From a virus (taxonomy: Duplodnaviria > Heunggongvirae > Uroviricota > Caudoviricetes), in IMG/VR virus record IMGVR_UViG_2713896899_000007, positions 1 through 64,000 of that record: a DNA stretch of 64,000 nucleotides; one strand, given 5' to 3'. The translations under genes were made by a program, and so were the position numbers. The notes beneath the pieces were generated by a model. It did not search any database, was not told the DNA's origin, and worked only from the letters and a program-made list of their open reading frames with translations. Positions 3,672 through 57,867 of the stretch are shown here, piece after piece; the stretch's first letter is position 1, and every line of letters begins with the position of its first letter.

Positions 3672-3763
3672 GTTGAATATGCTCCTTGATTTGGCGGGCT
3701 ATCCTTGCCCGCCATTAAGTAAGTACATACTTATTTTTACCGATGTAAATATTTTTTTCTACA

Positions 3764-6700: not shown

Positions 6701-8494
6701 GCGAACGCGCATAGGTTCGAGATCTGGTTCTGTAATTGTCCAGACACCGTTCAAAACAGGCGTTTCCGCTGACGACAGGGCTTTTGAAAACGTAACCTTT
6801 GTTATGTTTTCGCCAGTTTCAAGAACATCGCGTTCAACGATTTTGCCTTCCTGATTCAATATCCGAATAAAGCTGCCGCTTTTAGCTAACGACACAGGCG
6901 CATCGAGAGTGATGCTGTTTTTGGTAAACTCCACAATTCGACCGGAGTTACGTTTACCTGCACGATATTTGTTCTGAATCAGAACGGTTTCACCAGGCAT
7001 CAGAAATGAGGCGTCTAAGCCGGCAGTAAATGTAATTACATCCGACTCCATTCTGGCGGTATACAAAAGCCACAAACCAACTCGGTGAGCCTGGCCTCGG
7101 CTTGTACATCCAAATGCTACGACTTCTGTTTTACGCTCACCATAACGGCGCATTGCGTCCTGATCTTCAACGTACTCGATATTTTGCTTATAACCGTCCT
7201 CCTTGTTGTTGTAGGTTACGAGCGCAACGGATGGGCGATCTTTACGCGCAGAACCTTTATAGGTAAACAGTCCATCTTTGACGTTGGAGTTGGTAAACAT
7301 CATTACCGGATCTGATGGGCTATCCTGCATGATGTTAACCATGCCACCAGCCCAAAACACCATGCCGCGGAATGCACCGGCAATATCCTGAATTAATCGG
7401 TATGCGTCTTGTCGACTGGTGATCTGCGTATTGATTGCAAAGCGTTTCTCTTTACCCCCAAAGCCATCATCGACCTCTTCGTCACAATATCGACCAATCT
7501 GGTAGAGCTGGCCGAGGTCAATCATGGATTCCGACACAAATTGCCCAAGACCATACCGAGTATTGGTAAGCAAATCGTAGAGAATCCACGCAGGGTTTGA
7601 AGAAGACAACAGCTTAAAAGTACCGTCCCATACGCCGACATAAGTATTGGTGTATTCGTTGTAGTTTGACGGTACTCGGATTTTGATACCGCGCACCAAA
7701 TACGAACGGGAAGGCATTGTGCTACCAAACTGCTCTGAATTGACCTTCAAGCCAACAAGAGCAGAGTTAGGGTAGTTCATTGGCGTGTCGACAATCTCAC
7801 CGATGGAATCAACCCATGTGTCGTTGTAGAGGTACTGGCTACTGTTATCATCTGTAAGACGAATTACCCTAACCTTGTATGCACGACCAGGCTTAGGCAG
7901 TTTCAGCTCATAGCTACGGTAATACACGCCGGTTTTCTTTGCCGTTAGCGTGATATCAACGCTTTTCTCACCTTCTGCCACTACATCAGAAAATGTTGCG
8001 TCTCCGTTGGCGATCTGGAATTTGTACTTCACCGTAGTGCCGTTTGTATCGCCAGAGCTTTTATCAACGCTACGTAAAGAGGGGAATTTCATGATGACAC
8101 GAACGCGATCAGCTTCATCGTTATCGATTGAAACCGTAACGTCGTGTGTTTTTTTAAGCTGAATATTTACGGACTTAGGCGTTTCGACAAAATCAAAACC
8201 AGCCATTGGCGTCTGGTCTTGTGAGCCGTCACGAAAATCCCATGTAATACCGCTGAAGTTGGAAGAGCCATCTTCATTCAAGATCGGTAAATCGTCGATG
8301 AAGATCGACTTTGCGCCATTTACCAGGCCACCGATAACCCCCTCGCCAAGAAGGTCGAGGATGGCTGCCATAGCACGAGAATTGACAGTATCATCAGCTT
8401 CAACCGGTGTACGGCTGGAGCTTTTACTTTTCTTGCCACCAGCACCGGCAATAAGAAGCGGTAATTTTTTCTTCTTGAACTGTTCCATGTCCAA
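3764..8494 (-). CDS. host specificity / central tail fibre protein, lambda J-like, 1576 aa
   Basis: N-terminal and central segments match lambda J motifs (SRSYLVRGIKIRVPSNYN...GVWDGTFK, AFGCTSRGQAHRVGLWLL, KYVAGIALG...SQFLVQADRFG); position after I/K/L/M. Confidence 0.9.
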   Translation of the reverse strand: MDMEQFKKKKLPLLIAGAGGKKSKSSSRTPVEADDTVNSRAMAAILDLLGEGVIGGLVNGAKSIFIDDLPILNEDGSSNFSGITWDFRDGSQDQTPMAGFDFVETPKSVNIQLKKTHDVTVSIDNDEADRVRVIMKFPSLRSVDKSSGDTNGTTVKYKFQIANGDATFSDVVAEGEKSVDITLTAKKTGVYYRSYELKLPKPGRAYKVRVIRLTDDNSSQYLYNDTWVDSIGEIVDTPMNYPNSALVGLKVNSEQFGSTMPSRSYLVRGIKIRVPSNYNEYTNTYVGVWDGTFKLLSSSNPAWILYDLLTNTRYGLGQFVSESMIDLGQLYQIGRYCDEEVDDGFGGKEKRFAINTQITSRQDAYRLIQDIAGAFRGMVFWAGGMVNIMQDSPSDPVMMFTNSNVKDGLFTYKGSARKDRPSVALVTYNNKEDGYKQNIEYVEDQDAMRRYGERKTEVVAFGCTSRGQAHRVGLWLLYTARMESDVITFTAGLDASFLMPGETVLIQNKYRAGKRNSGRIVEFTKNSITLDAPVSLAKSGSFIRILNQEGKIVERDVLETGENITKVTFSKALSSAETPVLNGVWTITEPDLEPMRVRIVNIAQGETSGSFDITAVENNPSKYEAIDNGATLIPQNTTVLDPTYSKPSNLQITEGTYLSSPGNLSVKLTATWEGKSPEYWISWRRSDENNVSNWQSARVTEEQYEIVNVAENGRYDFQLYAVSFNGKKTEIISTVYQVLGTMTPPDAPTSLTAVGDYRNVILNWVNPDSVDLDHINVYASQTNNLDTAKLIAESASTTFTHAGLGDSETWYYWVRASNKRGMLSPPNSNLGTEATTRDVLSFLAGKITSSELGQALLEDINSKASQEAVDELNEHINQSVESLEGSVNDVKEDIAELDKQFSDNLADFEIKFNERSDALENAQTELKGEVSATIDKVNEAFEKIDATDAAIVEIENTVSEHDKALANTVEAIKAARDEAAALIAKESEARVEGDAANAKQLEVLQSTVEESSAAVEEMKKTVAEVDRASAELTTNIEALAKTNIDLALRQDEDQHKQMVNNAKIATTQKTFADDMSAMATKVEEIRVEIGEDIKASILEESTARADGDEALAKRVTQLQSKFEGDISAAISTEQEARTSADEALTTQITQLESKVSNDIVAAIKEEQEARATEDSALASQITQLQAKVDDDISAAIRSEQEARASGDSALAKQINQLQSKVDGDISAAITQEQEARASADQALSREINSLRAQTGTDIAAAVAVETKARTDADSALSTQITSLTAKANDLEASLARETTARADGDTALTKEVSSLKAQTAKDISAAVAVETQARTDADSALSSQITKLTSQYKEDIKAAVATETKTRTEQDAALATQITNLESQTAANISAAVTTETTARTQADNALSGRIDTLKAEVDGNTATIQQQATAIADTNKKVSTAWTLKMETSTSGGQKYVAGIALGIDTTGLSQFLVQADRFGLVNSVNGKITTPFVIENSIAYMNGAYIKDGTITNAKVGDLQSTNFVSGRSGWRFGKNGTLEINGNSGGNGRLVINGQRIDVYDDNNVLRVRIGLL
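4170..5300 (-). repeat. ~99-bp tandem coding repeats (about ten 33-aa heptad-like units) inside the J-like gene
   Basis: protein units DISAAIxxEQEARxxADxALxxQITxLxSKV repeat in tandem; matching DNA periodicity visible. Confidence 0.6.
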
Positions 8495-8505
8495 AAAATC
8501 CTTGA

Positions 8506-9099
8506 TTACATAAGCTGGTCGATGGTGATAGAAGAACTCACGACCTGTGAGCCAACTAAAATTTCCTCGCCATAGATAAGCTGTACAGGGTTCCCCTGGT
8601 TTGTTGTGTTTTGAGGTCCATCAAAGTAATAAGAGTTCGAGTTATCCGCCTGCCTCACACTTTCGTTAGTGGCTTGCGGAGATATGATTTGCGCTATACC
8701 GCCCATCATCAGTGACAAACCGAGAGGCGCAAGAGCGGGCAAGCCAAAAAAAGATGCCACCAATAAAGTGGCTCCAACAACCGTCTGAAACCACCCAAAA
8801 GCAGATCCGCCGCTTCCTCGCGGAACAGGGGTAATGCGAATTTTGGCAATGTTTTCAGACTGCCCCATCATCTGATATTCACTCTCGTCCACAGACCACT
8901 TGTGGCCTTGTTTATTGGTGATCTGGATGTGGTATCTGTCATAGGTTTTGATGTTGCGCTTCATCCATGCTTTAAACCCAGGCTTGTTGGCCTCAATTAA
9001 ATCCAGAGCCTGTTTTGTATTGCGCACCTTTAGATGCCAGTGGCGGCCAAAATGTTTGGCCATAGGGCCGCCAAGCTGCACATGAACTAACTCAGACAC
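8506..9099 (-). CDS. tail assembly protein, lambda I-like
   Basis: position between K and J; C-terminal hydrophobic Gly/Ala-rich segment. Confidence 0.55.
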   Translation of the reverse strand: MSELVHVQLGGPMAKHFGRHWHLKVRNTKQALDLIEANKPGFKAWMKRNIKTYDRYHIQITNKQGHKWSVDESEYQMMGQSENIAKIRITPVPRGSGGSAFGWFQTVVGATLLVASFFGLPALAPLGLSLMMGGIAQIISPQATNESVRQADNSNSYYFDGPQNTTNQGNPVQLIYGEEILVGSQVVSSSITIDQLM

Positions 9100-29483: not shown

Positions 29484-31043
29484 ATGACTGTTCGGATTGT
29501 ATCTAACGCAGTTAATGCGCTTATTTCTGGCGCAGATGACAAGGTAAAGCAACTGGTGCAGCAAATGTTGAGCTACGAAGTCGAGACTGGCGACTGGAAG
29601 GGCACAAGCACGATGTTCAACTGGAGTAAAAACTCGTTCCCTGCTGGCTTTGCCAAGCCTGTAGCGGCGAACTTGAACAAGGCGGGCATCAAATGTGTTC
29701 ATATCCGCAAAGACAAAGCCCCGGCGCTTGGTAAACCAAATCCGGCGGTTAACCCATTCCCATACAATCCTGATTATGCGTATCAGGATCAGACTGTGGA
29801 AACACTGGTTCGAGAGGGAATGATGATTGCGCAGATCGCTACTGGTGGCGGGAAATCTAACGTTGCCTGCAAAGCAGCTGCACGTATCGGTCGAATGACA
29901 TTATTTTTAACAACCCGCTCTGTTCTGATGTTTCAAATGGCCGAAAACTTCCAGAGATCCATCGACTACCGCGCCGAAAATGGCGAACCGTGGTTAAAAG
30001 ACCAAAAGGTTGGAGTCATTGGCTCGGGTGAGTTCCAGGTATCACGACATATCAACGTCGCTACAGTTCAAACTCTTGCAAGTTTCCTCGAAGAACCACC
30101 ACGCGATGCAACACCAGATAAGAAAAGCTACCACCTCAAACGTCGGGAGTTGGTGAAACGCTTCCTTTCAAGTGTCTCTCTTCTTATTCTGGAAGAGGCG
30201 CATGAGTCTTCAGGCTCAAATTTCTATGACATCGCCAGATTATGTGTGAACGCAGACTATCGTCTGGCGCTTACAGCCACGCCGTTCATGAAGGATTCGA
30301 CGGAAGCCAACATGCGCCTGATGGCGGTGGCCGGGCGAATTGAAATTAAAGTCACAGAAAAGTACCTGATTGATCGAGGCATTCTGGCAAAGCCGTACTT
30401 CCTTTATCATAAAGTTGCCTACAAACCAGACGAGGCCAGAATCAAGGCAGAACTTGCCAACAAACACCTCAATTTTAGAGTAGGTATGAGTACTGCCTAC
30501 CAAAAGGCTTATCAGTTGGGGATCGTGTATAATTTGGGACGTAACGAGGCCATTGTTCGCGAAGCATTGCTCTATAAGCAACATTCTCTCAATTGTATGA
30601 CTCTGGTTCGCCTTAAACGCCACGGGCAAATCCTGATGGAAATGATGAAAGAGTCCGGCCTTAGAGTTGACTTCATCTATGGGGAATCTAACCAGGCGAC
30701 AAGGCAAGCAAAGCTGAACAGTTTAGCGTCTGGAGAAATAGATGTTTTAATAGGCTCGACTATTCTGGATGTCGGTGTTGATGTGCCAAGCGTTGGTGCG
30801 GTCATTCTTGCTGGTGGTGGGAAAGCAGAAGTTGAAATGAGGCAGCGTGTCGGTCGTGGCTTACGAGCCAAGAAGAATCAGGCAAACGTGTGTTTTATCA
30901 CTGATTTCATTGACACTAGCAACAAATACCTGTTGTCTCACTCTTATGAGCGAAAACACATCATCGACACCACACCTGGCTTTGCAGAAGGTGTATTGCC
31001 TATTGATGGCGCATTCGATTTTGGAGTTCTGAAACGAGATTAG
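29484..31043 (+). CDS. superfamily-2 DEAH-type helicase
   Basis: motif I ATGGGKS, motif II LEEAHE, motif III LTATP, motif VI QRVGRGLR. Confidence 0.75.
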   Translation: MTVRIVSNAVNALISGADDKVKQLVQQMLSYEVETGDWKGTSTMFNWSKNSFPAGFAKPVAANLNKAGIKCVHIRKDKAPALGKPNPAVNPFPYNPDYAYQDQTVETLVREGMMIAQIATGGGKSNVACKAAARIGRMTLFLTTRSVLMFQMAENFQRSIDYRAENGEPWLKDQKVGVIGSGEFQVSRHINVATVQTLASFLEEPPRDATPDKKSYHLKRRELVKRFLSSVSLLILEEAHESSGSNFYDIARLCVNADYRLALTATPFMKDSTEANMRLMAVAGRIEIKVTEKYLIDRGILAKPYFLYHKVAYKPDEARIKAELANKHLNFRVGMSTAYQKAYQLGIVYNLGRNEAIVREALLYKQHSLNCMTLVRLKRHGQILMEMMKESGLRVDFIYGESNQATRQAKLNSLASGEIDVLIGSTILDVGVDVPSVGAVILAGGGKAEVEMRQRVGRGLRAKKNQANVCFITDFIDTSNKYLLSHSYERKHIIDTTPGFAEGVLPIDGAFDFGVLKRD

Positions 31044-31045
31044 TT

Positions 31046-31324
31046 ATGAGCGAAAAGAAAACAACTTATTGCCAAGTGGCATTGTCTGATAAGGCCAATG
31101 AAAAACTTGGAAAATTTCAAATAAAACTCAAAGAGAAAAAAATCAAGATGTCTAAGGCTGAAGTTATCAATGCCATTCTGGAGACGATGACTATGGCTGA
31201 ATTTGACAAAGTCACATCTGCCGTTGGGGTTTCCGCTAAGACGCGTGAGAAAATCATGCGCATCTATGAAAACTCCAATATGACAAAAAAAGATCTAGAG
31301 GAAATACTGAGCAGGTTGCCGTAA
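31046..31324 (+). CDS. hypothetical small protein
   Basis: 92-aa ORF coupled to helicase stop. Confidence 0.4.
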   Translation: MSEKKTTYCQVALSDKANEKLGKFQIKLKEKKIKMSKAEVINAILETMTMAEFDKVTSAVGVSAKTREKIMRIYENSNMTKKDLEEILSRLP

Positions 31325-31389
31325 CATTTCATATTTACCCCCTATCAACTAATTCTATGATGTGCTCACTTGTTAGAAAGGAGCACATC

Positions 31390-31956
31390 ATGAGTTGGTT
31401 AAAAGAATTATCATTTGTTGACACCACTGGCGCTAAGAAAAATCATTCTTTCTGGAAAGTCAGCGATCCTTCTGATTTTCTTGTTGGTGCTAATGCTGCT
31501 TTTGAATTGCTTAACTTTTATCAACGTTATCCTGAAATGAAACACAGTCCACTCCTGTACAGAATAACAAACGATATGAATAGGTCTGGTTTATTATCAA
31601 GTGAGTCAGCGAAAGGCTTTTTTAGCAAAATTACGCCACACATATCATTCGATGCAGCAAACGAAATTGATTGTCTATCCACGAAACCTCAAGAACAATT
31701 ATCTGTACCACCTGAGAAAAAACAAAGACGAATTGCCAGCATTGAAAATATATCGAAAGAGCTTCGCACAACAACGTTGAGGCTGCTGAACTTTCTTACG
31801 CTACTTAATTGGATAGATGATCAAACATTGATTCCATCAACCGATGCGTTGGATAACAGAGTACTTAGGCTGAACAAAAAATCGCAATTTGGTTTTGTGT
31901 TCACCAAAAAAGGTGAAGATTTAATCAAAAGAAAATATAGATTATTGAATGATTAA
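31390..31956 (+). CDS. hypothetical protein
   Basis: start moved to MSWLKEL, which has an AAAGGAG RBS. Confidence 0.4.
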   Translation: MSWLKELSFVDTTGAKKNHSFWKVSDPSDFLVGANAAFELLNFYQRYPEMKHSPLLYRITNDMNRSGLLSSESAKGFFSKITPHISFDAANEIDCLSTKPQEQLSVPPEKKQRRIASIENISKELRTTTLRLLNFLTLLNWIDDQTLIPSTDALDNRVLRLNKKSQFGFVFTKKGEDLIKRKYRLLND

Positions 31957-32101
31957 TAGTCTACATGCAGGTGTATGAGAGCACCTGCATGTGATATTCA
32001 TCACATTTTTTGAAGTACACACCTCCGGCTGAAAAAATTTCTTGATTGGCAGAACGATATTTGTAGGCTTTTCAATTGATAACTAAGGTCGGATACTGTA
32101 G

Positions 32102-32590
32102 ATGAGTATTTCCATAAACAAAATAATTAACTCTTTACGACATAAAATATCACATGGAAAAGATGTTCTTTTTAAAGACAAATATTATCTATTCAACCTA
32201 GAGTTGTACAAATGCACAAAATTTTATATCACTCGGAACCGTAAATATTCAGCTTCAATCACAAAAGACATGAAGAAAATCTCTTCAGAAGAGTACTTCA
32301 TATCACATATTTATATCTACCCATTTAAATTAGAACCATTAAATATAATTCTTCCAACAATAAAAGGGGTTGAACTTGAAGGTTATACTTTAAGCTCTAA
32401 CTTTAATGATATGGGTGTACAAAAACCAGGGACAAGGTCATACTACGCCTACAAAGTAAAATGCAATAACTACAACGCACTTAACATGCTAATCAGCAAA
32501 CTTGAAACGGAGATAGTCGAAGGAAATCTAAATGATGATCATGAAAAATTAGAACAAATAGAAAAACTTAGAAAGTGTGATGTTAAATAA
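32102..32590 (+). CDS. hypothetical protein (very AT-rich gene)
   Basis: 162-aa ORF, Lys/Asn/Ile/Tyr-rich. Confidence 0.4.
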   Translation: MSISINKIINSLRHKISHGKDVLFKDKYYLFNLELYKCTKFYITRNRKYSASITKDMKKISSEEYFISHIYIYPFKLEPLNIILPTIKGVELEGYTLSSNFNDMGVQKPGTRSYYAYKVKCNNYNALNMLISKLETEIVEGNLNDDHEKLEQIEKLRKCDVK

Positions 32591-33205
32591 TTGGATTATC
32601 ATGATATGAAAATGAAAATTTCGTTACTCCTTGCTTGTATATGCCTCCCGGCGTTTTCCGCCAACGCATTATCAGATTTCGTCTCTGACATGCAAAAAAC
32701 GTACAGCATGTTTACCTCCGAAGACGTAGTAGAATACAAATCACGAGGTCTGAATCAGCCAGTTTGGTTCAGATTCTCAGACAACGCAGAAGAAACAATA
32801 CTTAATGGAGGAAAAGAAAGATTACGGTTGCAAATTAACGGGACCGCTGTACCAGAAAACGTTAATGTAAACTCTGACGAAGCCATGAAGCCATCTGGAA
32901 TTGTTTTAGAAGTTCAAGACGGCACACTTTACTGTGATGAAATGGCTACAACAGGTTGCCAAGTAAACATTAGGGTTGGCAATGAAGAGCCTATCGTTAC
33001 TTACGCCAAGGCTGAAGGGAATACAAGTGGAAAGGTATTGTTTATCGATGAAAATATCTCAAAACGTATCGTTCGTGACATACAGAAAACAGCTAACTCT
33101 AAATCCGTCGATAAAAAAATCTATGTTGAGGTTCCCTTCTTTGTCGTTGGTAACAAAGAATTTAAATTTGGGTTGCTGAAAACACCTCTAAGAGTATCAG
33201 AATGA
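32591..33205 (+). CDS. exported protein with N-terminal signal peptide
   Basis: MKMKISLLLACICLPAFSANA signal-like N-terminus; coupled to neighbours. Confidence 0.45.
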   Translation: MDYHDMKMKISLLLACICLPAFSANALSDFVSDMQKTYSMFTSEDVVEYKSRGLNQPVWFRFSDNAEETILNGGKERLRLQINGTAVPENVNVNSDEAMKPSGIVLEVQDGTLYCDEMATTGCQVNIRVGNEEPIVTYAKAEGNTSGKVLFIDENISKRIVRDIQKTANSKSVDKKIYVEVPFFVVGNKEFKFGLLKTPLRVSE

Positions 33206-33726
33206 GAACATTGGACATCACCTACGGCATACCGGCTGAAGTCTGGCCGCGAGACTACGAACATGCTGAAAACATACTTATGTTCTGGCGGAAGAACAAC
33301 ATTCCTGTAAGAGTCACGCTTGAAGACGGTCAGGTGTTTTGCATGTACGTTCAGGGGACAATGCCTTCCCGCAATAAGCTAGATTTATGCCCGCTTCCAT
33401 ATGATAAAGAAAATCGTATAAGACTCCCACTTGAGCGCATTAGCACAATTGAATCAGGTGTAATCGATGGCATTGCTCGCGAGTTCAAAGGTAGGCTAAC
33501 AATACATCCAGACTATGTTGACAATCAGCCATCACGCCGTGACTTTTTTGCGATATGTCGCAAGGCTTATCAAAACGACCAATCTATAAGGGTCTACATG
33601 GCAGACGGTCGTGAAATTGAAGGGGTGTCAAGAGGCGTTGATGCTTGCCAGGTCACTCTTAAGTTAGAAGACGGCAGAAAAATACTTGTTTTCTTCGATT
33701 GGGTTGAACGAATCCTTCCATTTTAA
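33202..33726 (+). CDS. hypothetical protein (two beta-rich repeat halves)
   Basis: 174-aa ORF overlapping upstream stop. Confidence 0.4.
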   Translation: MRTLDITYGIPAEVWPRDYEHAENILMFWRKNNIPVRVTLEDGQVFCMYVQGTMPSRNKLDLCPLPYDKENRIRLPLERISTIESGVIDGIAREFKGRLTIHPDYVDNQPSRRDFFAICRKAYQNDQSIRVYMADGREIEGVSRGVDACQVTLKLEDGRKILVFFDWVERILPF

Positions 33727-33739
33727 ATCTATAAGGGTA

Positions 33740-33768
33740 ATAACCGGCTAAGCCCGGTTATTATTTTA
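33740..33768 (+). terminator. rho-independent terminator-like hairpin
   Basis: AACCGG-CTAAG-CCCGGTT stem-loop followed by T-rich run. Confidence 0.5.
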
Positions 33769-34012
33769 CATGCCATTCATTTAAAACTCTTTCAATGCCA
33801 CTCTGTATAAATATATAAGGTTAAAGGCCCGAATTGATTATTTATTTAGGGAACACCTTCGACGATCTCGCTTTTATTTCTAGGACTTTCACCCCTGCAA
33901 AAAATTTAAAAAAAACACTTGCAATCTTTTTTCACGTATCGATAATTGAACTCGTCGAAAGCGAGCTGGCTAACGACAGTAAAAAATAAATTCATTTTAA
34001 TTTTTCGTAAGG

Positions 34013-34672
34013 ATGTCCATCATGGCTAACATTATCATTTCTAAAAAATCCATCATTGAAGCTGCTTCCATTGTATCCGATGAACTGCGCGAAAAAGCAG
34101 ATCTGGCAACTCAAACATATAACGAACATTATAAAAATGGTACGCACACTAAAGCAGACAAAGCAAATATGCAAGCTGCGACCACTAAACTTGCTTACTT
34201 CATCAACAACGTCGTAAACGCAGTAGAAGACGAAAAATTATGCTCTGTTTTCTACTATGCGATTAAAGCAAGCAAACAAGCGCCAGAAGTATTTTTCCGT
34301 GATGCTATGACTAATAGTTATTCACTGGAAAAACTGGTTTATCTGGTTAAATCCATTAAAGCTGGTAAATGCGTTTATTCCGTCGCTGATATGTCAGGAT
34401 CTCGTGTATTCGCTTTAATCGATATGATTAACGACGAGATCGACACGTTCACCAATGGCGCTGTTTTCGATTTAATGAATGAAGCTAAAAAAGCGTGCGA
34501 AATTAAATTGGACGCTGGCTATACTCAAGCCAACCAGTTGATCAATCTTTGCGAACGTCTCGGACTTGTTGAAAAAGTCAAAGGAGCTGGGAGCGCCAAA
34601 GCTGGTACGCAGCAATATCGCTTCATTAAAAATGATTTCTACAATTATTTAGCTGATGCTTTTAAAGCGTAA
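34013..34672 (+). CDS. hypothetical protein
   Basis: 219-aa ORF with TTGCAA-16-GATAAT promoter-like sequence upstream. Confidence 0.45.
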   Translation: MSIMANIIISKKSIIEAASIVSDELREKADLATQTYNEHYKNGTHTKADKANMQAATTKLAYFINNVVNAVEDEKLCSVFYYAIKASKQAPEVFFRDAMTNSYSLEKLVYLVKSIKAGKCVYSVADMSGSRVFALIDMINDEIDTFTNGAVFDLMNEAKKACEIKLDAGYTQANQLINLCERLGLVEKVKGAGSAKAGTQQYRFIKNDFYNYLADAFKA

Positions 34673-34683
34673 TTAATGAAATC

Positions 34684-34705
34684 AAGCGCCCACTATGGGC
34701 GCTTT
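34684..34705 (+). terminator. hairpin GCGCCCA-CTA-TGGGCGC (copy 1)
   Basis: perfect 7-bp stem, 3-nt loop, after the 219-aa gene. Confidence 0.5.
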
Positions 34706-34721
34706 AAAGGAGCTTTCAAAA

Positions 34722-34925
34722 ATGGTCAGCTATGACAAGATCCGCGCGGAATATCGCGCAAAGTATCGCGCTTATAAACTGGAATTAATCGACGATTTGA
34801 TCGCGCAACGCGACCAATTAAATTTTACGTTTTCTGATTTGCTTAACAGTAAACGAGATTGTAAGCGTAAGCGTGAATATTTACGTTTAAGCGCATTAAT
34901 CGGAAAACTTCAAAATTCTATTTAA
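34722..34925 (+). CDS. hypothetical small protein
   Basis: start moved to MVSYDKIR, which has an AAAGGAG RBS. Confidence 0.35.
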   Translation: MVSYDKIRAEYRAKYRAYKLELIDDLIAQRDQLNFTFSDLLNSKRDCKRKREYLRLSALIGKLQNSI

Positions 34926-34945
34926 TTTTTTTAAGGAGCTTAATC

Positions 34946-35173
34946 ATGGTTATTTTCATCTCTGGCGTAAATATCAATAATCATACTCTTGTTTATGATA
35001 TTGCTGGTTTAGCTGGATATGCTCTAAGTTCTGAAGTGGTTGATGAAACAACGTTTAAAATAAACATCAATGACGTAGAACATAGAGCGCGCGTAGGAAT
35101 CAATGAAGCTGATGTTACTTTAATGCTTCAAGAATTTTTAAACGCTGGCTTTAATATTCACTTAGAAAAATAA
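34946..35173 (+). CDS. hypothetical small protein
   Basis: 75-aa ORF with AAGGAG RBS. Confidence 0.4.
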   Translation: MVIFISGVNINNHTLVYDIAGLAGYALSSEVVDETTFKININDVEHRARVGINEADVTLMLQEFLNAGFNIHLEK

Positions 35174-35180
35174 AAACAAT

Positions 35181-35320
35181 AGCGCCCACTATGGGCGCTT
35201 TTTTCGTTTACAATACACCCACCATAACGCGCCAATAATGGCGCTTTTTTATTGTCTTTAACTCACTCCAACAACATAAAAATAAGCGCCAAAATAACGC
35301 CATAGACGCGCTTTTATATC
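35181..35320 (+). terminator. stack of three to four terminator-like hairpins
   Basis: GCGCCCACTATGGGCGC+T6, GCGCCAATAATGGCGC+T6, further GC hairpin with T-run. Confidence 0.55.
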
Positions 35321-35399
35321 CTTGTCAGTACATACCCATTACTTAACACATTAACGCGCTTAAAATGCGTTATATTGCGCTATAACGTATGGCTAATCA

Positions 35400-35785
35400 T
35401 TAATTTTTATTCTTGCTATGTGATCCGCGTTTAATTGTCGGCGCGGATCGGCATTTTGTTTTGTTCCGTATCCGCTCGCGTATTATGTGCGCGTGATTTT
35501 TCACATAATCACACCACTTAATCACGTATGTGATTATGCTACGAAAGAAATCTGGATGTCTCAGGCGACGAAAGTCATCATAATTTTCCCCGCTCACCTG
35601 TCCGACAACCGCTGGTTGGATTCCACCAGCTTCCCGATGTTTTTTCTACATAAAGGCGAATGCAGCCGTTTCCCGAAAAAATCCTGGCCGTTTCCCGTCG
35701 GCTCATGAATGCGTTCCTTGCCGTTTCTGAAAATTTCCCTGCGGCAGCTGGTGGCTATAGAGAAAGGGCCGTTTCTGGCCCTCTT
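35400..35785. promoter_or_regulatory. candidate origin/partition region: palindromes, DnaA-box-like 9-mers and iteron-like direct repeats (cluster 1)
   Basis: GATCCGCG...CGCGGATC palindrome; TGTGATTAT-like boxes; four or five GCCGTTTC(C/T) repeats spaced ~22-35 bp. Confidence 0.4.
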
Positions 35786-35790
35786 CTCAG

Positions 35791-36273
35791 TTACACGCCA
35801 TCAAGGATGTGGATGCGGTTGCTTGCGTATACATTCAGCATAAAGTTAGCGCAAAACAGTTTCCATGTATCAACGCCAGCGGTATACGTAATGTTTTTGC
35901 ATTTAATTGCATTGTTGGCGATCTGCGTAGCCAGTGATATGGCTTCATGGTCAGTAAAGCCGTATGACGTTTGGGTCTTCATCCAGACAGAAATCTGCGT
36001 AGCGAACTCAATCAGCTTGGACTGGCAGAATCGCCCGGAGCGCACCGGAAAGACGAACGTTCCGAATCCAGAATTTACCACATACGCTTTCTCAAATACC
36101 CGAGAGTAACGACGATTGCCAATGATGTCGCGTGCAATAATGCATTTTTCTTGTTCTGACAGTTCTACCGTCTCATTGTGACGCCAGGCACCAAGTACTC
36201 GTTTTTCAATGTCAGAGAACGTTACAGCGATATTGCCATGTGCGGGTGCGTTTACAGTAGCGATAAAATTCAT
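35791..36273 (-). CDS. hypothetical protein
   Basis: 160-aa ORF with AAGGAA RBS and motif B upstream. Confidence 0.45.
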   Translation of the reverse strand: MNFIATVNAPAHGNIAVTFSDIEKRVLGAWRHNETVELSEQEKCIIARDIIGNRRYSRVFEKAYVVNSGFGTFVFPVRSGRFCQSKLIEFATQISVWMKTQTSYGFTDHEAISLATQIANNAIKCKNITYTAGVDTWKLFCANFMLNVYASNRIHILDGV

Positions 36274-40539: not shown

Positions 40540-40690
40540 AAAACAAATTGTTTTAGGTACTGTGTAAATCAGAAGGGATTGTGTCTATATGAAAATGCCC
40601 GGCGTGTTGCCGGGCATTGCGAAGAGAGGTTGTTTAATTACTTAACCTGGTGGCCAGGTTTAGCACCGGCATCCGGCTGCAGGATGGGAG
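40540..40690. repeat. direct repeat copy 1: diverged duplicate of metG 3' end (last ~12 codons plus stop), terminator hairpin and motif B; att-like
   Basis: about 85 percent identical to 41398-41550 over ~150 bp. Confidence 0.6.
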
Positions 40691-41367
40691 GTTACGTTCG
40701 CGCTATGTTGATATTCTGATTGACGCCATTTGTGCCAAATCATCTCCTTATAGGATTCATATTGCGTTCGGTACTCTGGCTTCAAGTCAGATATGCCTTT
40801 ATTCACTACCGCTCGTACGTTTACTAATAATTCGTGCTCAATGCCTTTACTCTCTAAATATTCTACAACACCAGCATCGGGGCCAATTGCCCTGCCGTTA
40901 AAGACCATTTCCAGCATAAGCTCTGTTTCAGCAAAATAGATAGGTGAGGAACCAGGTGCACACAGCTTAATAGCAGTAAGATTGTCCAACAGGTCGGCCA
41001 ATTTAATCATTCGCGTCTGCATATCCAACGTCTTTTGCAATTCGCGAACATTAATAATGAATCTCGCAAGACTATCGCCGTCGTCTGGTTTGGCAACGTT
41101 TGCCAGCGCCAGTACCATCTCAGCTACACGATTCCCGAAATACTCGCGTACCATTTCGATAGTGATATGGGTATCTTCAATAACACCATGTAATAATGCA
41201 GCAGCCTGCATTTCGACAGTGCCTCCGTGCCAAGCAACAATCTCACGCACAGAAACTGGGTGTGTAACGTAGTCTTCCCCCGTATATCTACGCTTCTTAC
41301 CTACACCACCATACACTCCAACGGCAAACATATGAGCTTTATCAACAATCGACATAATTTGCTCCAT
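40660..41367 (-). CDS. SpoT/Rel-type HD-domain hydrolase paralogue, HG variant of the HD motif, chimeric C-terminus
   Basis: HPVSVREIV...ALLHGVIEDT...MIKLADLLDN; 3' end reads into the metG-derived repeat in another frame. Confidence 0.55.
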   Translation of the reverse strand: MEQIMSIVDKAHMFAVGVYGGVGKKRRYTGEDYVTHPVSVREIVAWHGGTVEMQAAALLHGVIEDTHITIEMVREYFGNRVAEMVLALANVAKPDDGDSLARFIINVRELQKTLDMQTRMIKLADLLDNLTAIKLCAPGSSPIYFAETELMLEMVFNGRAIGPDAGVVEYLESKGIEHELLVNVRAVVNKGISDLKPEYRTQYESYKEMIWHKWRQSEYQHSANVTSHPAAGCRC

Positions 41368-41397: not shown

Positions 41398-41550
41398 AAT
41401 AGAACGCAGAAAACAAATTGTTTTAGGGGCTGAGTAAATCAGAAGGGATTGCGTCTATATGAAAATGCCCAGCAATACGCTGGGCATTGTGAAGAATGGT
41501 TGTTTAGTTACTTAACTTGGTGGCCTGGTTTAGCACCAGCATCCGGGCTT
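41398..41550. repeat. direct repeat copy 2, overlapping the true 3' end of metG
   Basis: homologous to 40540-40690. Confidence 0.6.
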
Positions 41551-43541
41551 AACAGGAAGATATCTTTCCCGCCGGGGCCAGCAGCCATCACCATGCCTTC
41601 GGAGATACCGAAGCGCATTTTACGCGGAGCCAGGTTAGCCACCATAATTGTGTGACGACCAATCAGTGCCTGTGGGTCTGGATAAGCAGAACGGATGCCT
41701 GAGAAGACATTACGCTTTTCACCACCGAGATCCAGTGTCAGGCGCAACAGTTTGTCAGAACCTTCAACAAACTCCGCGTTTTCAATCAGCGCCACACGCA
41801 GGTCAACTTTGGCGAAGTCGTCAAAGGTGATGGTTTCCTGAATCGGGTCGTCAGCCAGTGGGCCAGTAACTGGCGCGGCAGTAGCTTTCACTTCTTCTTT
41901 GGATGCTTCCACCAGTGCTTCCACCTGTTTCATATCGATACGGTTATACAGTGCCTTGAACGGATTCACTTTATGGCCCAGCAGCGGTTGCTGGATACCA
42001 TCCCAGGTCAGTTCTGTATTCAGGAATGCTTCTGCACGTTCAGTCAGTTTCGGCAGTACCGGTTTCAGATACGTCATCAGCACGCGGAACAGGTTAATGC
42101 CCATAGAGCAAATCGCCTGCAGATCTGCATCGCGACCTTCCTGCTTCGCCACCACCCACGGAGCCTGTTCATCGACATAGCGGTTAGCCAGGTCAGCCAA
42201 TGCCATGATTTCACGGATAGCTTTACCAAATTCGCGGCTTTCCCATGCTTCGCCAATCACTTCAGCGGCATCAGTAAAGGTTTTGTACAGTTGCGGGTCA
42301 GCCAGTTCGCTTGCCAGCACGCCGTCAAAACGCTTGTTGATAAAGCCTGCATTACGGGAGGCCAGGTTAACCACTTTGTTAACAATATCGGCATTCACTC
42401 GCTGAACGAAATCCTCCAGGTTGAGATCGATATCATCAATGCGCGAAGAGAGTTTCGCAGTGTAGTAGTAACGCAGGCTGTCAGCGTCAAAATGATTCAG
42501 CCAGGTGCTGGCTTTAATAAAGGTGCCGCGAGACTTGGACATCTTCGCACCGTTCACCGTCACATAGCCATGAACAAACAGGTTGGTCGGCTTGCGGAAG
42601 TTGCTGCCTTCCAGCATGGCAGGCCAGAACAGACTGTGGAAGTAAACGATATCTTTACCGATGAAGTGGTACAGCTCGGCGGTGGAGTCTTTCTTCCAGT
42701 ATTCATCGAAGCTGGTGGTATCGCCGCGCTTGTCGCACAGATTCTTGAAGGAACCCATGTAGCCAATCGGTGCGTCCAGCCAGACGTAGAAATATTTACC
42801 CGGCGCGTTCGGAATTTCAAAACCGAAGTAAGGTGCGTCGCGGGAGATATCCCACTGTTGCAGACCAGATTCAAACCACTCCTGCATTTTGTTTGCCACC
42901 TGCTCCTGCAACGCACCGCTGCGGGTCCATGCCTGCAACATTTCGCTGAAAGAGGGCAGATCAAAGAAGAAGTGTTCAGAATCACGCATTACCGGGGTAG
43001 CACCAGAAACCACCGATTTCGGCTCGATCAGTTCAGTCGGGCTGTAGGTCGCGCCACAAACTTCACAGTTATCGCCGTATTGATCTGGCGCTTTACATTT
43101 CGGGCAGGTGCCTTTCACAAAACGATCCGGCAGGAACATGCCTTTTTCCGGGTCGTACAACTGAGAGATAGTGCGGTTTTTAATAAAACCGTTCTCTTTC
43201 AGGCGAGTATAAATAAGCTCAGACAGCTGGCGGTTCTCTTCGCTGTGCGTCGAGTGATAGTTGTCATAGCTGATGTTAAAGCCTGCGAAATCAGTCTGGT
43301 GTTCCTGACTCATTTCGCCAATCATCTGCTCCGGTGTGATACCAAGTTGCTGTGCTTTCAGCATGATCGGCGTACCGTGGGCATCGTCGGCACAGATGAA
43401 ATTAACCTCGTGGCCGCGCATTCGCTGGTAACGAACCCAGACATCAGCCTGGATGTGCTCCAGCATATGGCCGAGGTGGATTGAGCCGTTAGCGTACGGC
43501 AGCGCGCACGTCACCAGAATTTTCTTCGCGACTTGGGTCAT
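41508..43541 (-). CDS. metG: methionyl-tRNA synthetase (host gene)
   Basis: 677-aa product with HIGH-type motif ([11 protein letters not shown]) and KMSKS; near-identical to enterobacterial MetG from MTQVAKK; the longer track ORF is an upstream in-frame extension. Confidence 0.95.
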
Positions 43542-43698
43542 AGTAGGCATTACTTCTTTGTAGTGAAAAGGGGCTTGATAGTAACAAAATGGCCTTATGT
43601 CTGCCATGTGATAACAGCATTTCTCATAAATGATTAAATGTCGTAGCTGGAGTACACTACAAGGCGACAATTGCGCAAATTAAAATAAAGGAGACGGG

Positions 43699-44799
43699 AT
43701 GAGCGAGTCCAAATCGCCGGATGCCCTGAGAGCAATGGTAGCCGGTACGCTGGCTAATTTTCAGCACCCAACCCTGAAACACAACCTGACTACGCTTAAA
43801 GCGTTACACCATGTTGCGTTGATGGATGACACACTGCATGTCGAACTAATCATGCCTTTCGTGTGGAATAAGCCTTTTGAAGACCTGAAAGAGCAATGTA
43901 GTGGTGATCTGCTCCGTATCACTGGCGCAAAGGCTATTGACTGGAAGCTGTCGTACAACATTGCCACGCTTAAGCGCGTCAAAAACCAACCAGGCATTAA
44001 TGGTGTTAAGAATATTATCGCCGTAAGCTCAGGCAAGGGCGGTGTAGGCAAATCGTCCACAGCAGTAAACTTGGCACTGGCGTTGGCTGCTGAAGGTGCG
44101 AAAGTTGGTATTTTGGATGCCGATATCTACGGGCCATCAATACCAACCATGCTGGGCGCGGAAAACCAACGTCCAACCTCACCGGACGGTACTCACATGG
44201 CACCTATCATGTCTCATGGCCTGGCAACCAATTCAATTGGCTATCTGGTCACCGACGACAATGCAATGGTGTGGCGTGGACCGATGGCCAGCAAGGCGCT
44301 GATGCAGATGTTGCAGGAAACACTGTGGCCTGATCTGGACTATCTCGTTCTCGATATGCCGCCGGGCACTGGTGATATTCAGTTGACGCTGGCGCAGAAC
44401 ATTCCTGTAACTGGTGCGGTTGTGGTAACTACGCCGCAAGACATCGCGCTGATCGATGCGAAGAAAGGCATTGTGATGTTCGAAAAAGTCGAAGTGCCAG
44501 TACTGGGTATCGTTGAAAACATGAGTGTGCATATTTGCAGTAACTGCGGTCATCACGAGCCAATTTTTGGCACCGGTGGCGCACAGAAACTGGCCGAGAA
44601 ATACAACACGCAGTTGTTAGGCCAAATGCCACTTCATATCTCTCTTCGTGAAGATCTGGATAACGGAACACCAACCGTTATTAGTCGTCCAGATAGTGAA
44701 TTTACGGCTATTTATCGTGACCTCGCAGATCGCGTTGCTGCCCAAATGTATTGGCAAGGTGAAGTAATACCTGGCGAAATCGCATTCCGCGCAGTGTGA
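43699..44799 (+). CDS. apbC: Fe-S cluster carrier ATPase ApbC/Mrp (host gene)
   Basis: deviant Walker A SGKGGVGKS and CxxC motif; divergent from metG as in E. coli. Confidence 0.95.
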   Translation: MSESKSPDALRAMVAGTLANFQHPTLKHNLTTLKALHHVALMDDTLHVELIMPFVWNKPFEDLKEQCSGDLLRITGAKAIDWKLSYNIATLKRVKNQPGINGVKNIIAVSSGKGGVGKSSTAVNLALALAAEGAKVGILDADIYGPSIPTMLGAENQRPTSPDGTHMAPIMSHGLATNSIGYLVTDDNAMVWRGPMASKALMQMLQETLWPDLDYLVLDMPPGTGDIQLTLAQNIPVTGAVVVTTPQDIALIDAKKGIVMFEKVEVPVLGIVENMSVHICSNCGHHEPIFGTGGAQKLAEKYNTQLLGQMPLHISLREDLDNGTPTVISRPDSEFTAIYRDLADRVAAQMYWQGEVIPGEIAFRAV

Positions 44800-49188: not shown

Positions 49189-49742
49189 TACGATGCCTCT
49201 AACTTGTCTAACTCTTTCAGCCCTTCACGTACCGCGTTCACAATGCGTTCCAGATACTGGTATTTCGGGTTTGGTACCGTTGGCCAGTCGGCATACCACG
49301 GATCATCACCAAAGAGATTCAGTAGTTTGTTACCGACGCCGAAACAGCAGCAGCTTTCTTTTACGTCATCGGCGTTTTCCGCCTCGTCCCACATTTCGCG
49401 AGCCAGTACGGCGTCTATTTCTCTCTCTCTTCGTAACTTTATGATTTCTGACTTCACGAAAAGCAGATTTGCATCGTTGTCATCGTCGACCGTGCTTCGC
49501 AGTTGAGGGTCGAAATAGCCGATTAGATACTCGTTGCTGACCCGCTTAATGAACGTCTGCACATCATCACCGCCCATAGCAAACCAAGCCGCAGTCCACG
49601 CTTTTCCGTAGCAGGTGATGGTGATTCTTCCCTTACCAGGTTCGTAGTTTTCAATCATCACTCGAACCGGATCGAGGCGTTCCAGATCCGTCAGCACAAA
49701 GGAAAGAACATCTATTTTTTCGATCTTCATGCAGCCTCCCAC
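49188..49742 (-). CDS. hypothetical protein
   Basis: 184-aa ORF. Confidence 0.4.
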   Translation of the reverse strand: MGGCMKIEKIDVLSFVLTDLERLDPVRVMIENYEPGKGRITITCYGKAWTAAWFAMGGDDVQTFIKRVSNEYLIGYFDPQLRSTVDDDNDANLLFVKSEIIKLRREREIDAVLAREMWDEAENADDVKESCCCFGVGNKLLNLFGDDPWYADWPTVPNPKYQYLERIVNAVREGLKELDKLEAS

Positions 49743-50368
49743 GCGCTCCAGATCAGCGATTTGTGTTTTTCATAACGTTTGATGTGTACCGGTTTCAGAA
49801 GCGCAATACCTTCAGTGACTTTCGCCATTGCGCTTAATAACAACGGGTGTTCTATACCTATCCTCTCCATGTACTCGACAACATCAGCGTTGGCACCAAT
49901 CTCCTTCCCGTTAAAAAGTACGTCCAGCATCAGCTCTTTCTCTGCAAGGTAGATAGCTGAAAACTCAGGATCGCGACTCACGATAGAAGAGGTATTGTCG
50001 AGCAGGTCAGCCAGCTTGATCATGCGCGTCTGCATGTCGAGATTTTGCTCCAGCTCCCGGACATTGATGATGAAACGCTGTATTCGATTGCCGTCTTCTG
50101 GCCTTGCGATGTTGGTCAGAGCCTGAACCATTTCAGCTACGCGCTCACCGAAGTGATCACGAACCATCTCTATGGTTACATTGGTGTCTTCGACCACATC
50201 ATGCAGAAGCGCCGCGATTTGCATCTCCACGGTTCCGTCATGCAATGCAACAATCTCTCGGACAGCAACCGGGTGGTTGATGTAGTCTTCGCCGGTATAT
50301 TTTCTTTTCTGACCAACGCCACCATGAGCGCCAGCGGCGAACATATGTGCTTCGGAAATACTAGACAT
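49727..50368 (-). CDS. SpoT/Rel-type HD-domain hydrolase (small alarmone hydrolase-like), intact HD motif
   Basis: HPVAVREIV...ALLHDVVEDT...MIKLADLLDN. Confidence 0.65.
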   Translation of the reverse strand: MSSISEAHMFAAGAHGGVGQKRKYTGEDYINHPVAVREIVALHDGTVEMQIAALLHDVVEDTNVTIEMVRDHFGERVAEMVQALTNIARPEDGNRIQRFIINVRELEQNLDMQTRMIKLADLLDNTSSIVSRDPEFSAIYLAEKELMLDVLFNGKEIGANADVVEYMERIGIEHPLLLSAMAKVTEGIALLKPVHIKRYEKHKSLIWSAWEAA

Positions 50369-51633: not shown

Positions 51634-53319
51634 TCATTTAACGCGTTTGAAAACGTATACGCTGACTGTGATCCCTGTGTCTTCAAACTCGTTGGTAAAC
51701 GACTTCCCTCTGGCATAAACGTAATTATCCATCGTCATCCAGTCCAGTATTGGCGCAGTGCCCGGCAATACTGCTACAAGACGCCCGCCGACTTTCAGAT
51801 GCCCCAGCGCAGCCATCGTGTGCTCTCTATGACGACCAAGCGAGTACGGCGGGTTCATAACGATTTTGTCGAACTGATAACCTGCGTTGTCCTCAGACCA
51901 CTTTATGAAGTCGCAGCAAATCGTGTTCGTATACCCTTTTCCACGCAGGATATCAGCGAAGAGAGGTGCGATTTCTATGCAGGTAACATCTTCCAGATCG
52001 GCGTTAATATAGGCCAGAAGATCCCCACGTCCGGCTTGAGGCTCCAGCAGCTTCTCACCAGGCTTCAATTCAGTGGCTCTGGCAACGTACTCAGCAATCA
52101 AGCGTGGGGTAGGGTAGAACTGGTGTGATTTTGTATCCGGTATTAAACCGGTAGCCACAATCGTATTTAGCGTATGGCCGATGTCATACGGGAACTGCCA
52201 GTGCTTTTTCTCCTGCACGCCGCCAATGAAGCTCAGTGTGCGCTCAAGCTCTTCCACCTGCGACTTCTGGAGAGCTGAATCAGAGAAGTACCATACGCCT
52301 TTGTCTTTGCTCAATCGCCCGTCACGAAGCGCAGTGCGAACCGGCACGGAGATCGTCTTCTGGATTAACCCGAACTGCTTTGGTGCCCGTGTTTTTGGCG
52401 CAGTGCGGCATGGCGCGGGGATTGCAGCAGGCATACTGTAAGCCAGCACCTCATTCAACTTCCAGGCCACGTCAGGATGTATTTCAAAGTGAACGTTGCC
52501 GTTCTTGAACATCTTCACGCGCATCAGATTTCCATCGACGTTCATCCAGTCACCGGTCTGGCAGTCGTTTGCCCGATACGCAGCTGATAGCACCTCAGCA
52601 GTGCGGTTGATGGTAATAAATTCTTTGTGCGCGAAGAAATGAAGCAAGACACGCAGATCGTCGATGTAGTCCTCTTTGCGATAGTTCACGCTAACGCTGT
52701 CCCGCCAGAAATCAGAAATGCAGTCAGCGATTATCAGCCGCTCGCTGAAACCGTTTGTCTTATTCGTCTTGTGCGCAGGACTCAGCGCCTTAAACAAGCC
52801 ATACACGCGCTCAGAGAGATATTTGTGCCTGTCATTCAGCAAATTAAGCATCGTGGGTATGACCGTTTCTGCTTTGAACTCCGGTACACCAACGAACTCT
52901 TTAACCTTCATCTGGTAGCCGGTTCTGTCAGTTTTGATGACTTCCTGTTTGCCCTCTATAAACTGCTCGCGCCACTCATCTCGACGGGAAGCTGGCATGA
53001 TCAGCAAAACGTTAGTCATGTCCGTGACCTTCCTCCAGTACTCGGCCCAAATATTCTGTTTCACCCATTCCAGATCGACTTTATCCAACCAACCTCGATT
53101 TAAACGCGAGCGATCTTCATCTGGTCGATGGTTTAGTCGCAGCAGGCGATTAATCATGTTGTGGCGTTCGTCGCCATAAACGAAGTCGTGTACCTGATAC
53201 ATGAAGGCGATCTCTTTCTCGCACTCGGCCACGATTTCGTGGATGACATTCATTTCCTGACGATAGTCGATAGCCGTGTTTGAGCTGGCATCGTCGATGA
53301 TGGAAAGGGCTGTATTCAT
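51634..53319 (-). CDS. N6-adenine-type methyltransferase with ~400-aa N-terminal domain of unknown function
   Basis: C-terminal motif I LLEPQAGRGDL and motif IV NPPY about 45 aa apart. Confidence 0.6.
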   Translation of the reverse strand: MNTALSIIDDASSNTAIDYRQEMNVIHEIVAECEKEIAFMYQVHDFVYGDERHNMINRLLRLNHRPDEDRSRLNRGWLDKVDLEWVKQNIWAEYWRKVTDMTNVLLIMPASRRDEWREQFIEGKQEVIKTDRTGYQMKVKEFVGVPEFKAETVIPTMLNLLNDRHKYLSERVYGLFKALSPAHKTNKTNGFSERLIIADCISDFWRDSVSVNYRKEDYIDDLRVLLHFFAHKEFITINRTAEVLSAAYRANDCQTGDWMNVDGNLMRVKMFKNGNVHFEIHPDVAWKLNEVLAYSMPAAIPAPCRTAPKTRAPKQFGLIQKTISVPVRTALRDGRLSKDKGVWYFSDSALQKSQVEELERTLSFIGGVQEKKHWQFPYDIGHTLNTIVATGLIPDTKSHQFYPTPRLIAEYVARATELKPGEKLLEPQAGRGDLLAYINADLEDVTCIEIAPLFADILRGKGYTNTICCDFIKWSEDNAGYQFDKIVMNPPYSLGRHREHTMAALGHLKVGGRLVAVLPGTAPILDWMTMDNYVYARGKSFTNEFEDTGITVSVYVFKRVK

Positions 53320-53460
53320 AATTACACCATTAAATAATTTGTTTTCTTATTGGTGTAATTATCGCAAACTTGAAAAGGCATAAAAGCTGCATTCATAGGC
53401 GTTACAGCAGATTTAAGGCGTAAAAATGGGGGCTTTCGCCCCCTGTCGACTGGTGCAGTA

Positions 53461-57273: not shown

Positions 57274-57867
57274 CTAAGCAGCCTTCTTTGATGGTCTTTT
57301 TTTCCTGACCACATTCGCAGGATCATACCCTCCCAGACTTTTCATTACGTCCAAAGGGATCTTGCTTATAGAGTGCCCAGCGTCCTGACAGAATCCTCGA
57401 AAAACAACGAGCATACTGCCACCGGGGTTGATGTTTACTTCTACCTGACCCAAATTGACGTCAGGCTCGACAAACGCTACGCGGCCACCAGACAGAATAA
57501 TCGTCTCATTCGCATACTCTGTTGCACGCTCATACCACTTTGTATCGAGGGATTGAGGAATTAGCATCACTGTTGTAACTCCGCGAGCCTGCTCACGTAT
57601 AGCAGCATCAATCCAGGGGGAGATTTTGGAGTAGGGTGGATTGAGGAAGGCAATTGTACCTGGCTGTCCCCATTCAGATTTCAAAGCATCGCGCTCAACG
57701 CCTATGAAATTAGGCAGCTTTGCATTGTCCTTGTTGCAGGCAACGTCAACATCAAATGTCACTCCAAGATAACGTTGAATGGCAGAAAACAGCCAATCAG
57801 GTGTTCTCCAGAGGTCACGAAGAGAGTTGTCGCGCTTTCGCTGTTTGATTTTTTCGGCTGCAATCAT
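57274..57867 (-). CDS. phage Dam-family DNA N6-adenine methyltransferase
   Basis: WRTPDWLF...FDVDVA...AFLNPPYS motifs. Confidence 0.8.
   Translation of the reverse strand: MIAAEKIKQRKRDNSLRDLWRTPDWLFSAIQRYLGVTFDVDVACNKDNAKLPNFIGVERDALKSEWGQPGTIAFLNPPYSKISPWIDAAIREQARGVTTVMLIPQSLDTKWYERATEYANETIILSGGRVAFVEPDVNLGQVEVNINPGGSMLVVFRGFCQDAGHSISKIPLDVMKSLGGYDPANVVRKKRPSKKAA

Follow-up and report, generated by a model that had tools for sequence, protein, structure and literature searches.

A predicted orphan DNA N6-adenine methyltransferase with an N-terminal DUF4942 region in an SSU5-like phage-plasmid

Orphan methyltransferases are a prominent class of enzymes enriched in plasmid leading regions, and those with an anti-restriction role have their niche in phages and in these leading regions (PMC11541004). 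The orphan methyltransferases M.EcoGIX and M.BceJIII, both specific for single-stranded DNA (ssDNA), belong to leading regions, and M.EcoGIX, a member of the beta family with a DPPY motif, has been shown experimentally to protect its plasmid on entry (PMC7736820). In the gamma N6-adenine DNA methyltransferases M.TaqI, CamA, M.BseCI, and HsdM, the recognition domain is located C-terminally or on a separate HsdS subunit. The literature contained passing mentions only of the domain DUF4942, and no functional study of this domain or of the methylase in SSU5 or pHCM2 was found.

The window, as the whole stretch of DNA analyzed here is called, comprises 64,000 nucleotides of a viral record (IMGVR_UViG_2713896899_000007, positions 1 to 64,000). 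It contains an intact ORF at 51634 to 53319 on the minus strand, the strand of all parts and upstream elements of the gene described below, which starts with ATG and encodes 561 amino acids followed by a stop codon. The ORF represents a complete DUF4942-methyltransferase fusion gene and matches phrog_6263 (“DNA methyltransferase”) from end to end, with aa 1 to 561 aligned to positions 1 to 548 of the 548-position profile (E = 1e-299). At the DNA level, the gene is 98 to 99% identical to its counterparts in Escherichia phages CMS-2020a, Cyrano, and PhiR41_1 and approximately 90% identical to that of Salmonella phage SSU5; in related phage records, it is labeled “DUF4942 domain-containing protein” or “DNA methyltransferase.” The ORF is flanked by genes for Ead/Ea22-like, HD-domain, TerB-like, and small hypothetical proteins, and since the remaining genes encode tail proteins, ParA/ParB, MetRS, thymidylate synthase, DHFR, and RNase H, the window was assigned to an SSU5-like phage-plasmid. 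The family is known in databases but functionally unstudied, and the window gene is a new member of it.

Several other features of the window were recorded. There are genes for a full methionyl-tRNA synthetase (41508 to 43670, minus strand) and a ParA/MinD-like partition ATPase (43699 to 44799, plus strand), and further genes encode thymidylate synthase, DHFR, RNase H, and two HD-domain proteins (49727 to 50368 and 40660 to 41367). A 174-aa protein with a Pfam Flag1_repress match (FljA-like repressor of phase-1 flagellin; E = 5.4e-81) is encoded at 33202 to 33726 (plus strand), in a plus-strand island of 37 to 42% GC within the low-GC stretch at approximately 30000 to 36000 and next to a ResIII/DEAD helicase gene (29484 to 31043); this has the appearance of acquired cargo, with a potential effect on the expression of host flagella. 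In addition, in the type I-E CRISPR array next to cas2e/iap of E. coli AST85, the spacer nearest the leader (locus L010, positions 6001 to 6033, of NZ_AP043644.1) matches window positions 52612 to 52644 (codons ~226 to 236 of the 561-aa gene) at 33 of 33 nucleotides, and the protospacer has the PAM ATG. The 561-aa gene is thus a site at which CRISPR immunity of E. coli has registered this family of phage-plasmids.

The preliminary description of this DNA had proposed gamma-like motifs in the C-terminal part of the protein, and these were found where it had placed them. The predicted N6-adenine methyltransferase catalytic domain occupies aa 396 to 561 (51637 to 52134). In a residue-level alignment with M.TaqI, the segment QFYPTP (aa 400 to 405; 52105 to 52122), which aligns to the M.TaqI ETP segment and corresponds to a motif X-like (F/Y)xTP, precedes the SAM-binding loop of motif I, LLEPQAGRGDL (aa 424 to 434; 52018 to 52050), which in turn precedes the catalytic motif IV, NPPY (aa 489 to 492; 51844 to 51855); this is the linear order of the gamma group. 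The SAM-binding and NPP(Y/F) residues were invariant across 56 divergent clusters. In the structure model, the approximately 70 aa after NPPY supply the final strands of the Rossmann fold, and a C-terminal target-recognition domain is absent; the last ~165 aa thus constitute a minimal but complete Rossmann methyltransferase domain. Two further settings harbor this minimal domain, namely, a 187-aa stand-alone protein of IncF leading regions and DarB-like/internal-virion phage proteins of 2,000 to 4,000 aa.

The matches of this domain point to DNA as the substrate. Its fold matches were N6-adenine methyltransferases, including the DNA enzymes M.TaqI and CamA at 25 to 27% identity, and the Type II MTase and mad2 HMMs matched the protein at E values of 2e-10 to 2.5e-15. 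The match to PF02384 (N6_Mtase, HsdM/Type IIG-like) remained below the gathering threshold of 20.4 bits (13.5 bits, E = 0.045), and a sequence search of the PDB with the whole protein and with an N-terminal profile gave M.TaqI at E = 0.098 and otherwise noise (e.g., ZorA and UDP-glucose dehydrogenase). An enzyme acting on RNA (m6A in rRNA or tRNA) or on protein glutamine, as a host-takeover factor, seems highly improbable: the best sequence-level matches are DNA methyltransferase models, identity to TaqI and CamA exceeds identity to RNA enzymes, homologues repeatedly adjoin bona fide DNA methyltransferase genes in replication modules, and homologous domains occur in the DarB-like proteins, which the annotation of their records and the antirestriction function of P1 DarB link to antirestriction.

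The preceding 395 aa had been described as unassigned and without a recognizable motif. Instead, they contain Pfam DUF4942 (PF13708) at aa 140 to 295 (52435 to 52902), which was matched at 74 bits (E = 1.7e-20; profile positions 35 to 187 of 190), above the gathering threshold of 25 bits. The N-terminal part begins with a long helical hairpin, predicted at aa 20 to 62 (53134 to 53262) from AF2 secondary structure, and aa 1 to 80, which include it, are the least conserved part of the family (21% mean pairwise identity among the 56 clusters). The conserved core at aa 81 to 300 (52420 to 53079) includes DUF4942. Across the same clusters, mean pairwise identity was 43% for aa 81 to 130, 47.5% for aa 131 to 300, and 43% for the catalytic domain, so that aa 131 to 300 are the most conserved part of the whole protein; the core was the best-kept segment in complete phage genomes as well. 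It bears invariant polar residues, among them the family-wide L-S-x-x-H-x-T-N loop (LSPAHKTN, aa 179 to 186; 52762 to 52785), which is probably flexible, since aa 183 to 186 had pLDDT values below 50 in the AF2 model. No solved structural analogue and no informative fold analogue of aa 81 to 300 was found, and a BFVD fold search gave weak family-like matches only. The label “RE endonuclease” given to homologues in some phage records prompted a search for nuclease signatures; a PD-(D/E)xK or HNH nuclease near D221, D262, H277, and E279 was rejected, there being no fold or HMM support for it.

Between the core and the catalytic domain, aa 301 to 395 are basic (pI 9.67), whereas the core is near-neutral (pI 6.7), and this basic stretch includes a small alpha/beta subdomain at aa 325 to 390 (52150 to 52347) with the secondary structure H-E-E-H-E-E-H. 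The mean pairwise identity of aa 326 to 395 was 28% among the 56 clusters. Among close relatives, aa 326 to 395 were the fastest to diverge, with 54 to 74% identity where the flanking core had 90 to 93%; in one example, the values were 54% for this segment, 90% for the core, and 81% for the catalytic domain. With no C-terminal recognition domain, engagement of DNA would have to come from the N-terminal 395 aa, to which the preliminary description had tentatively attributed target recognition or another activity. Taken as a whole, the region is a poor recognition candidate, because its core exceeds even the catalytic domain in conservation (47.5% versus 43%); a recognition domain should vary, and the candidate role was therefore narrowed to the basic, fast-diverging aa 326 to 395. 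From these sequence comparisons, this subdomain beside the catalytic domain appears to be the likeliest specificity determinant, and for the DUF4942 core, the role of a shared scaffold or docking module is more plausible than that of reading sequence. In one homologue (P0044), aa 2 to 300 were 95.5% identical to an E. coli-type allele and aa 301 to 561 were 99 to 100% identical to a Klebsiella-type allele (P0080); this mosaic suggests module exchange, with assembly chimerism as another possible source since it is a single assembled contig.

The fusion is widespread and intact. When only the first 395 aa were used to build a profile, it matched 1,588 clusters (50% identity); among the best 150 of these, nearly all proteins were 510 to 580 aa long, leaving room for an N-terminal module together with a C-terminal domain of the size found in the window protein, and the others were 328 to 430 aa long. 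The gene was found in 251 of 5,426 complete E. coli genomes, with 247 of its 256 places on plasmids; 187 E. coli genomes and 2,136 plasmid records showed it at a coverage of at least 80%. Homologues came from Escherichia, Salmonella, Klebsiella, Xenorhabdus, Providencia, and Variovorax among the 120 matches listed, and full-length homologues extended down to 31% identity (IncHI2 plasmids). That the long ORF could be two genes joined by a sequencing frameshift, as considered at the outset, was refuted: a single full-length ORF is conserved from 99% to approximately 30% identity across hundreds of clusters, with invariant residues on either side of the domain junction. The same single-ORF architecture recurs in 11 phage records and the 187 E. 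coli genomes, and few of the best 150 clusters deviate from it; we regard the frameshift explanation as practically negligible. Taken together, this is a large family of predicted DNA adenine methyltransferases that stand alone, occur in phages, phage-plasmids, conjugative plasmids, and genomic islands, and most likely conceal the DNA of their carriers from host restriction enzymes.

HMM searches for recognizable families revealed no nuclease among the genes flanking the ORF in the window, and neither a conserved neighbor nor a nuclease was found across approximately 80 genomic loci, the largest neighbor cluster covering 7 of 75 loci. The gene is therefore an orphan in the sense that, among known nuclease families, no cognate restriction endonuclease accompanies it, nor does a conserved partner gene. 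Its neighbors included, in a Pfam sample, PsiB, PsiA, SLT, DUF932, TraH, LPD29/30, integrase, YqaJ, DnaB, and DnaT, and SSU5 has a DUF1380 gene near its own copy. In a Variovorax prophage, the homologue directly follows cI/cro and is followed by an N6_N4 methyltransferase gene; in an enterobacterial prophage, it lies among O/P-like replication genes with N6_N4 and C5 methyltransferase genes. At 12 of 78 loci, the same strand encoded a second DNA methyltransferase, the gene for which started within ~220 bp of the stop codon of the homologue in five cases. These contexts correspond to the niche of orphan anti-restriction methyltransferases and would fit a function in entry or replication. The anti-restriction role suggested earlier thus agrees with the missing nuclease partner, with the early/replication modules of prophages and the leading regions of plasmids, and with the other methyltransferases nearby at the 12 of 78 loci and on IncHI2 plasmids.

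The window itself has two adenine methyltransferase genes, as had been noted. The second, located approximately 4 kb from the 561-aa gene at 57274 to 57867 on the minus strand, encodes a 197-aa phage Dam-family enzyme with NPPY at aa 76 and passed the curated cutoffs of PF05869 (132 bits; cutoff, 28.1) and TIGR01712 (113.9 bits; cutoff, 97.05). Among the called ORFs of the window, the motif [DNS]PP[YFW] occurred in the 561-aa and 197-aa methyltransferases only. GATC was not depleted in the window (265 sites observed versus 246 expected). A similar pair was observed on the IncHI2 plasmid pCFSAN004025.1 (L002, positions 3560 to 7844), where a full-length, 31% identical DUF4942-methyltransferase gene lies 1.8 kb from a Dam-family gene and a few kilobases from repHI2, mirroring the arrangement in the window.

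Upstream of the 561-aa gene, a terminator-like hairpin, GGGGGCGAAAGCCCCC, followed by a T-run (53428 to 53443), separates it from the preceding gene; this hairpin is also retained in SSU5 and pJN2-26. The sequence TGcGATAAT (53358 to 53366) resembles an extended −10 promoter element and is kept in four phage-plasmids as TGnGATAAT, TGaAATAAT, or TGgGAAAAT. A perfect 12-bp inverted repeat, ATAATTACACCA/TGGTGTAATTAT (53318 to 53362; RNA fold, −13.2 kcal/mol), runs across the −10 element and the ribosome-binding site GGTG into the start codon, of which it takes in the first two bases; it shows a compensatory change in Cyrano and is kept only in part in SSU5 and pJN2-26. The inverted repeat may be an operator or a 5′-UTR hairpin, and the three elements together suggest that the gene is transcribed as a separate, regulated unit.

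We consider it probable, with appreciable room for doubt, that the protein is a stand-alone orphan SAM-dependent DNA N6-adenine methyltransferase that shields the phage-plasmid from host restriction. The gene would be expressed from its own promoter-like element while the mobile element replicates, and the enzyme would methylate the DNA of the element so that the restriction systems of the next host cell fail to cut it; judging from the context, the Dam-family enzyme encoded 4 kb away would protect another set of sites. DNA would be engaged through the N-terminal 395 aa, with aa 326 to 395 setting specificity and the DUF4942 core acting as a scaffold or docking module. Methylation could also mark “self” for an end other than escape from restriction. 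The phage-plasmid might carry a dispersed defence system with the enzyme as its modification half, or the enzyme might regulate replication, packaging, or the lysis-lysogeny decision epigenetically. The best PADLOC match was indeed mad2, the methyltransferase of the methylation-associated defence system; the palindrome over the promoter and start codon suggests regulated expression; and phage-plasmids reside stably in cells. However, the mad2 match is confined to the catalytic domain (aa 394 to 523), no further defence components were found beside the gene, no neighbor was conserved in 75 loci, and the gene is spread over very different element types; we therefore judge a self-marking role decidedly unlikely.

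The DUF4942 core also occurs without a methyltransferase. An E. coli island contains a 281-aa DUF4942 protein gene as the last gene of a cassette with the order DUF932, antirestriction (PF03230), RadC, DUF987, CbeA, CbtA, DUF5983, and DUF4942 (L009, positions 3832 to 8591, of the E. coli 64A:C chromosome record NZ_CP134663.1). Its product aligns to aa 83 to 298 of the window protein (hhalign probability, 99.2%) and keeps W95, LS..(H/Y)xTN, DL, G274, H277, and N289; phage proteins of 247 to 308 aa likewise consist of DUF4942 without a methyltransferase. An alternative to the restriction-shielding enzyme, which we hold only tentatively and think unlikely, is that the core works autonomously in establishment or anti-defence and the methyltransferase is the cargo that it delivers. 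Such a module might bind to DNA, possibly single-stranded, that is entering the cell or being replicated, or to a host replisome or defence protein, and methylation at the fork would be broad and of low specificity, by analogy with M.EcoGIX. Such a role is consistent with a core that, unlike recognition domains, is more conserved than the catalytic domain and exists alone in the island and phage proteins; with fused genes that adjoin PsiB/PsiA/SSB-type leading-region genes; with a catalytic domain that exists alone (187 aa) in IncF leading regions; and with the precedent of ssDNA-specific leading-region enzymes (PMC7736820). Against it, the core is near-neutral and its fold has no informative analogue, M.EcoGIX is a beta-class DPPY enzyme unrelated in sequence, and binding of ssDNA or protein is hypothetical.

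In its boldest form, which we regard as speculative and rather doubtful, DUF4942 would be an unrecognized fold and an autonomous establishment module that delivers a minimal methyltransferase to the nascent DNA of the element, with the small hypervariable aa 326 to 395 cassette setting or relaxing the choice of sites and perhaps passing from lineage to lineage along with the catalytic domain. If this were true, the protein would represent a new DNA methyltransferase architecture, composed of an N-terminal delivery module, a mini recognition element, and a gamma-order catalytic domain, and the stand-alone DUF4942 proteins would be methyltransferase-independent anti-defence factors. SSU5-like phage-plasmids are common in Enterobacteriaceae, homologues are present on IncHI2 resistance plasmids, and the restriction systems defeated by the enzyme would help explain the host range of the carrier elements. 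Since the family comprises >1,500 clusters and no solved structural analogue or functional study was found for the bigger half of the protein, a single methylome and a single structure would allow genes to be annotated by the thousand and would reveal whether DUF4942, present without a methyltransferase in the E. coli “antirestriction” cassettes, is a new anti-defence module.

In comparison with known systems, the window protein resembles M.EcoGIX and M.BceJIII in being a predicted orphan m6A enzyme of a mobile element with an anti-defence/leading-region niche and a proposed protective role on entry; however, those enzymes lack DUF4942 and have no detectable sequence relationship to it. M.EcoGIX was rejected as a relative, since it is a beta-class enzyme with DPPY and is therefore unrelated in sequence to the window protein, which has NPPY in the gamma order. 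Closer in sequence is the 187-aa “class I SAM-dependent methyltransferase” of IncF/IncI leading regions, a clear homologue of aa 400 to 520 (31% identity; E = 1e-15) with the motifs QLFxSP, LEPSAGTG, and NPPFS and without the N-terminal module; on the IncF plasmid pNDM5-GZ04_B (L005, positions 5914 to 6477), with a second “DNA methylase” gene nearby, it is encoded near oriT amid antirestriction, DUF1380, DUF3560, and DUF932 genes. The IncF DUF3560 protein was rejected as a split N-terminal module (hhalign probability, 0.4%). The DarB-like/internal-virion giants (P1 DarB type; PHROGs 15406, 11358, 10691, and 5143) have a homologous methyltransferase domain (E values of 1e-5 to 1e-20) but are virion-packaged proteins of 2,000 to 3,900 aa with helicase and other domains; the window protein, with 561 aa and no helicase family match, lacks the DarB-type combination of a methyltransferase and a helicase in >2,000 aa. 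The CP4-type island DUF4942 proteins share homology with aa 83 to 298 but are methyltransferase-free, 281 aa long, and placed at the end of an antirestriction-RadC-CbeA/CbtA cassette. Unlike M.TaqI, CamA, M.BseCI, and HsdM, the window protein is modeled as stopping after the last strand, with its additional 395 aa placed N-terminally in an apparently unrelated fold. From the PF13708/PHROG 6263 members, including SSU5_095, Cyrano CYRAN_90, and the pHCM2 protein “YdiA,” it does not differ: these have the same full-length architecture at 86 to 99% identity.
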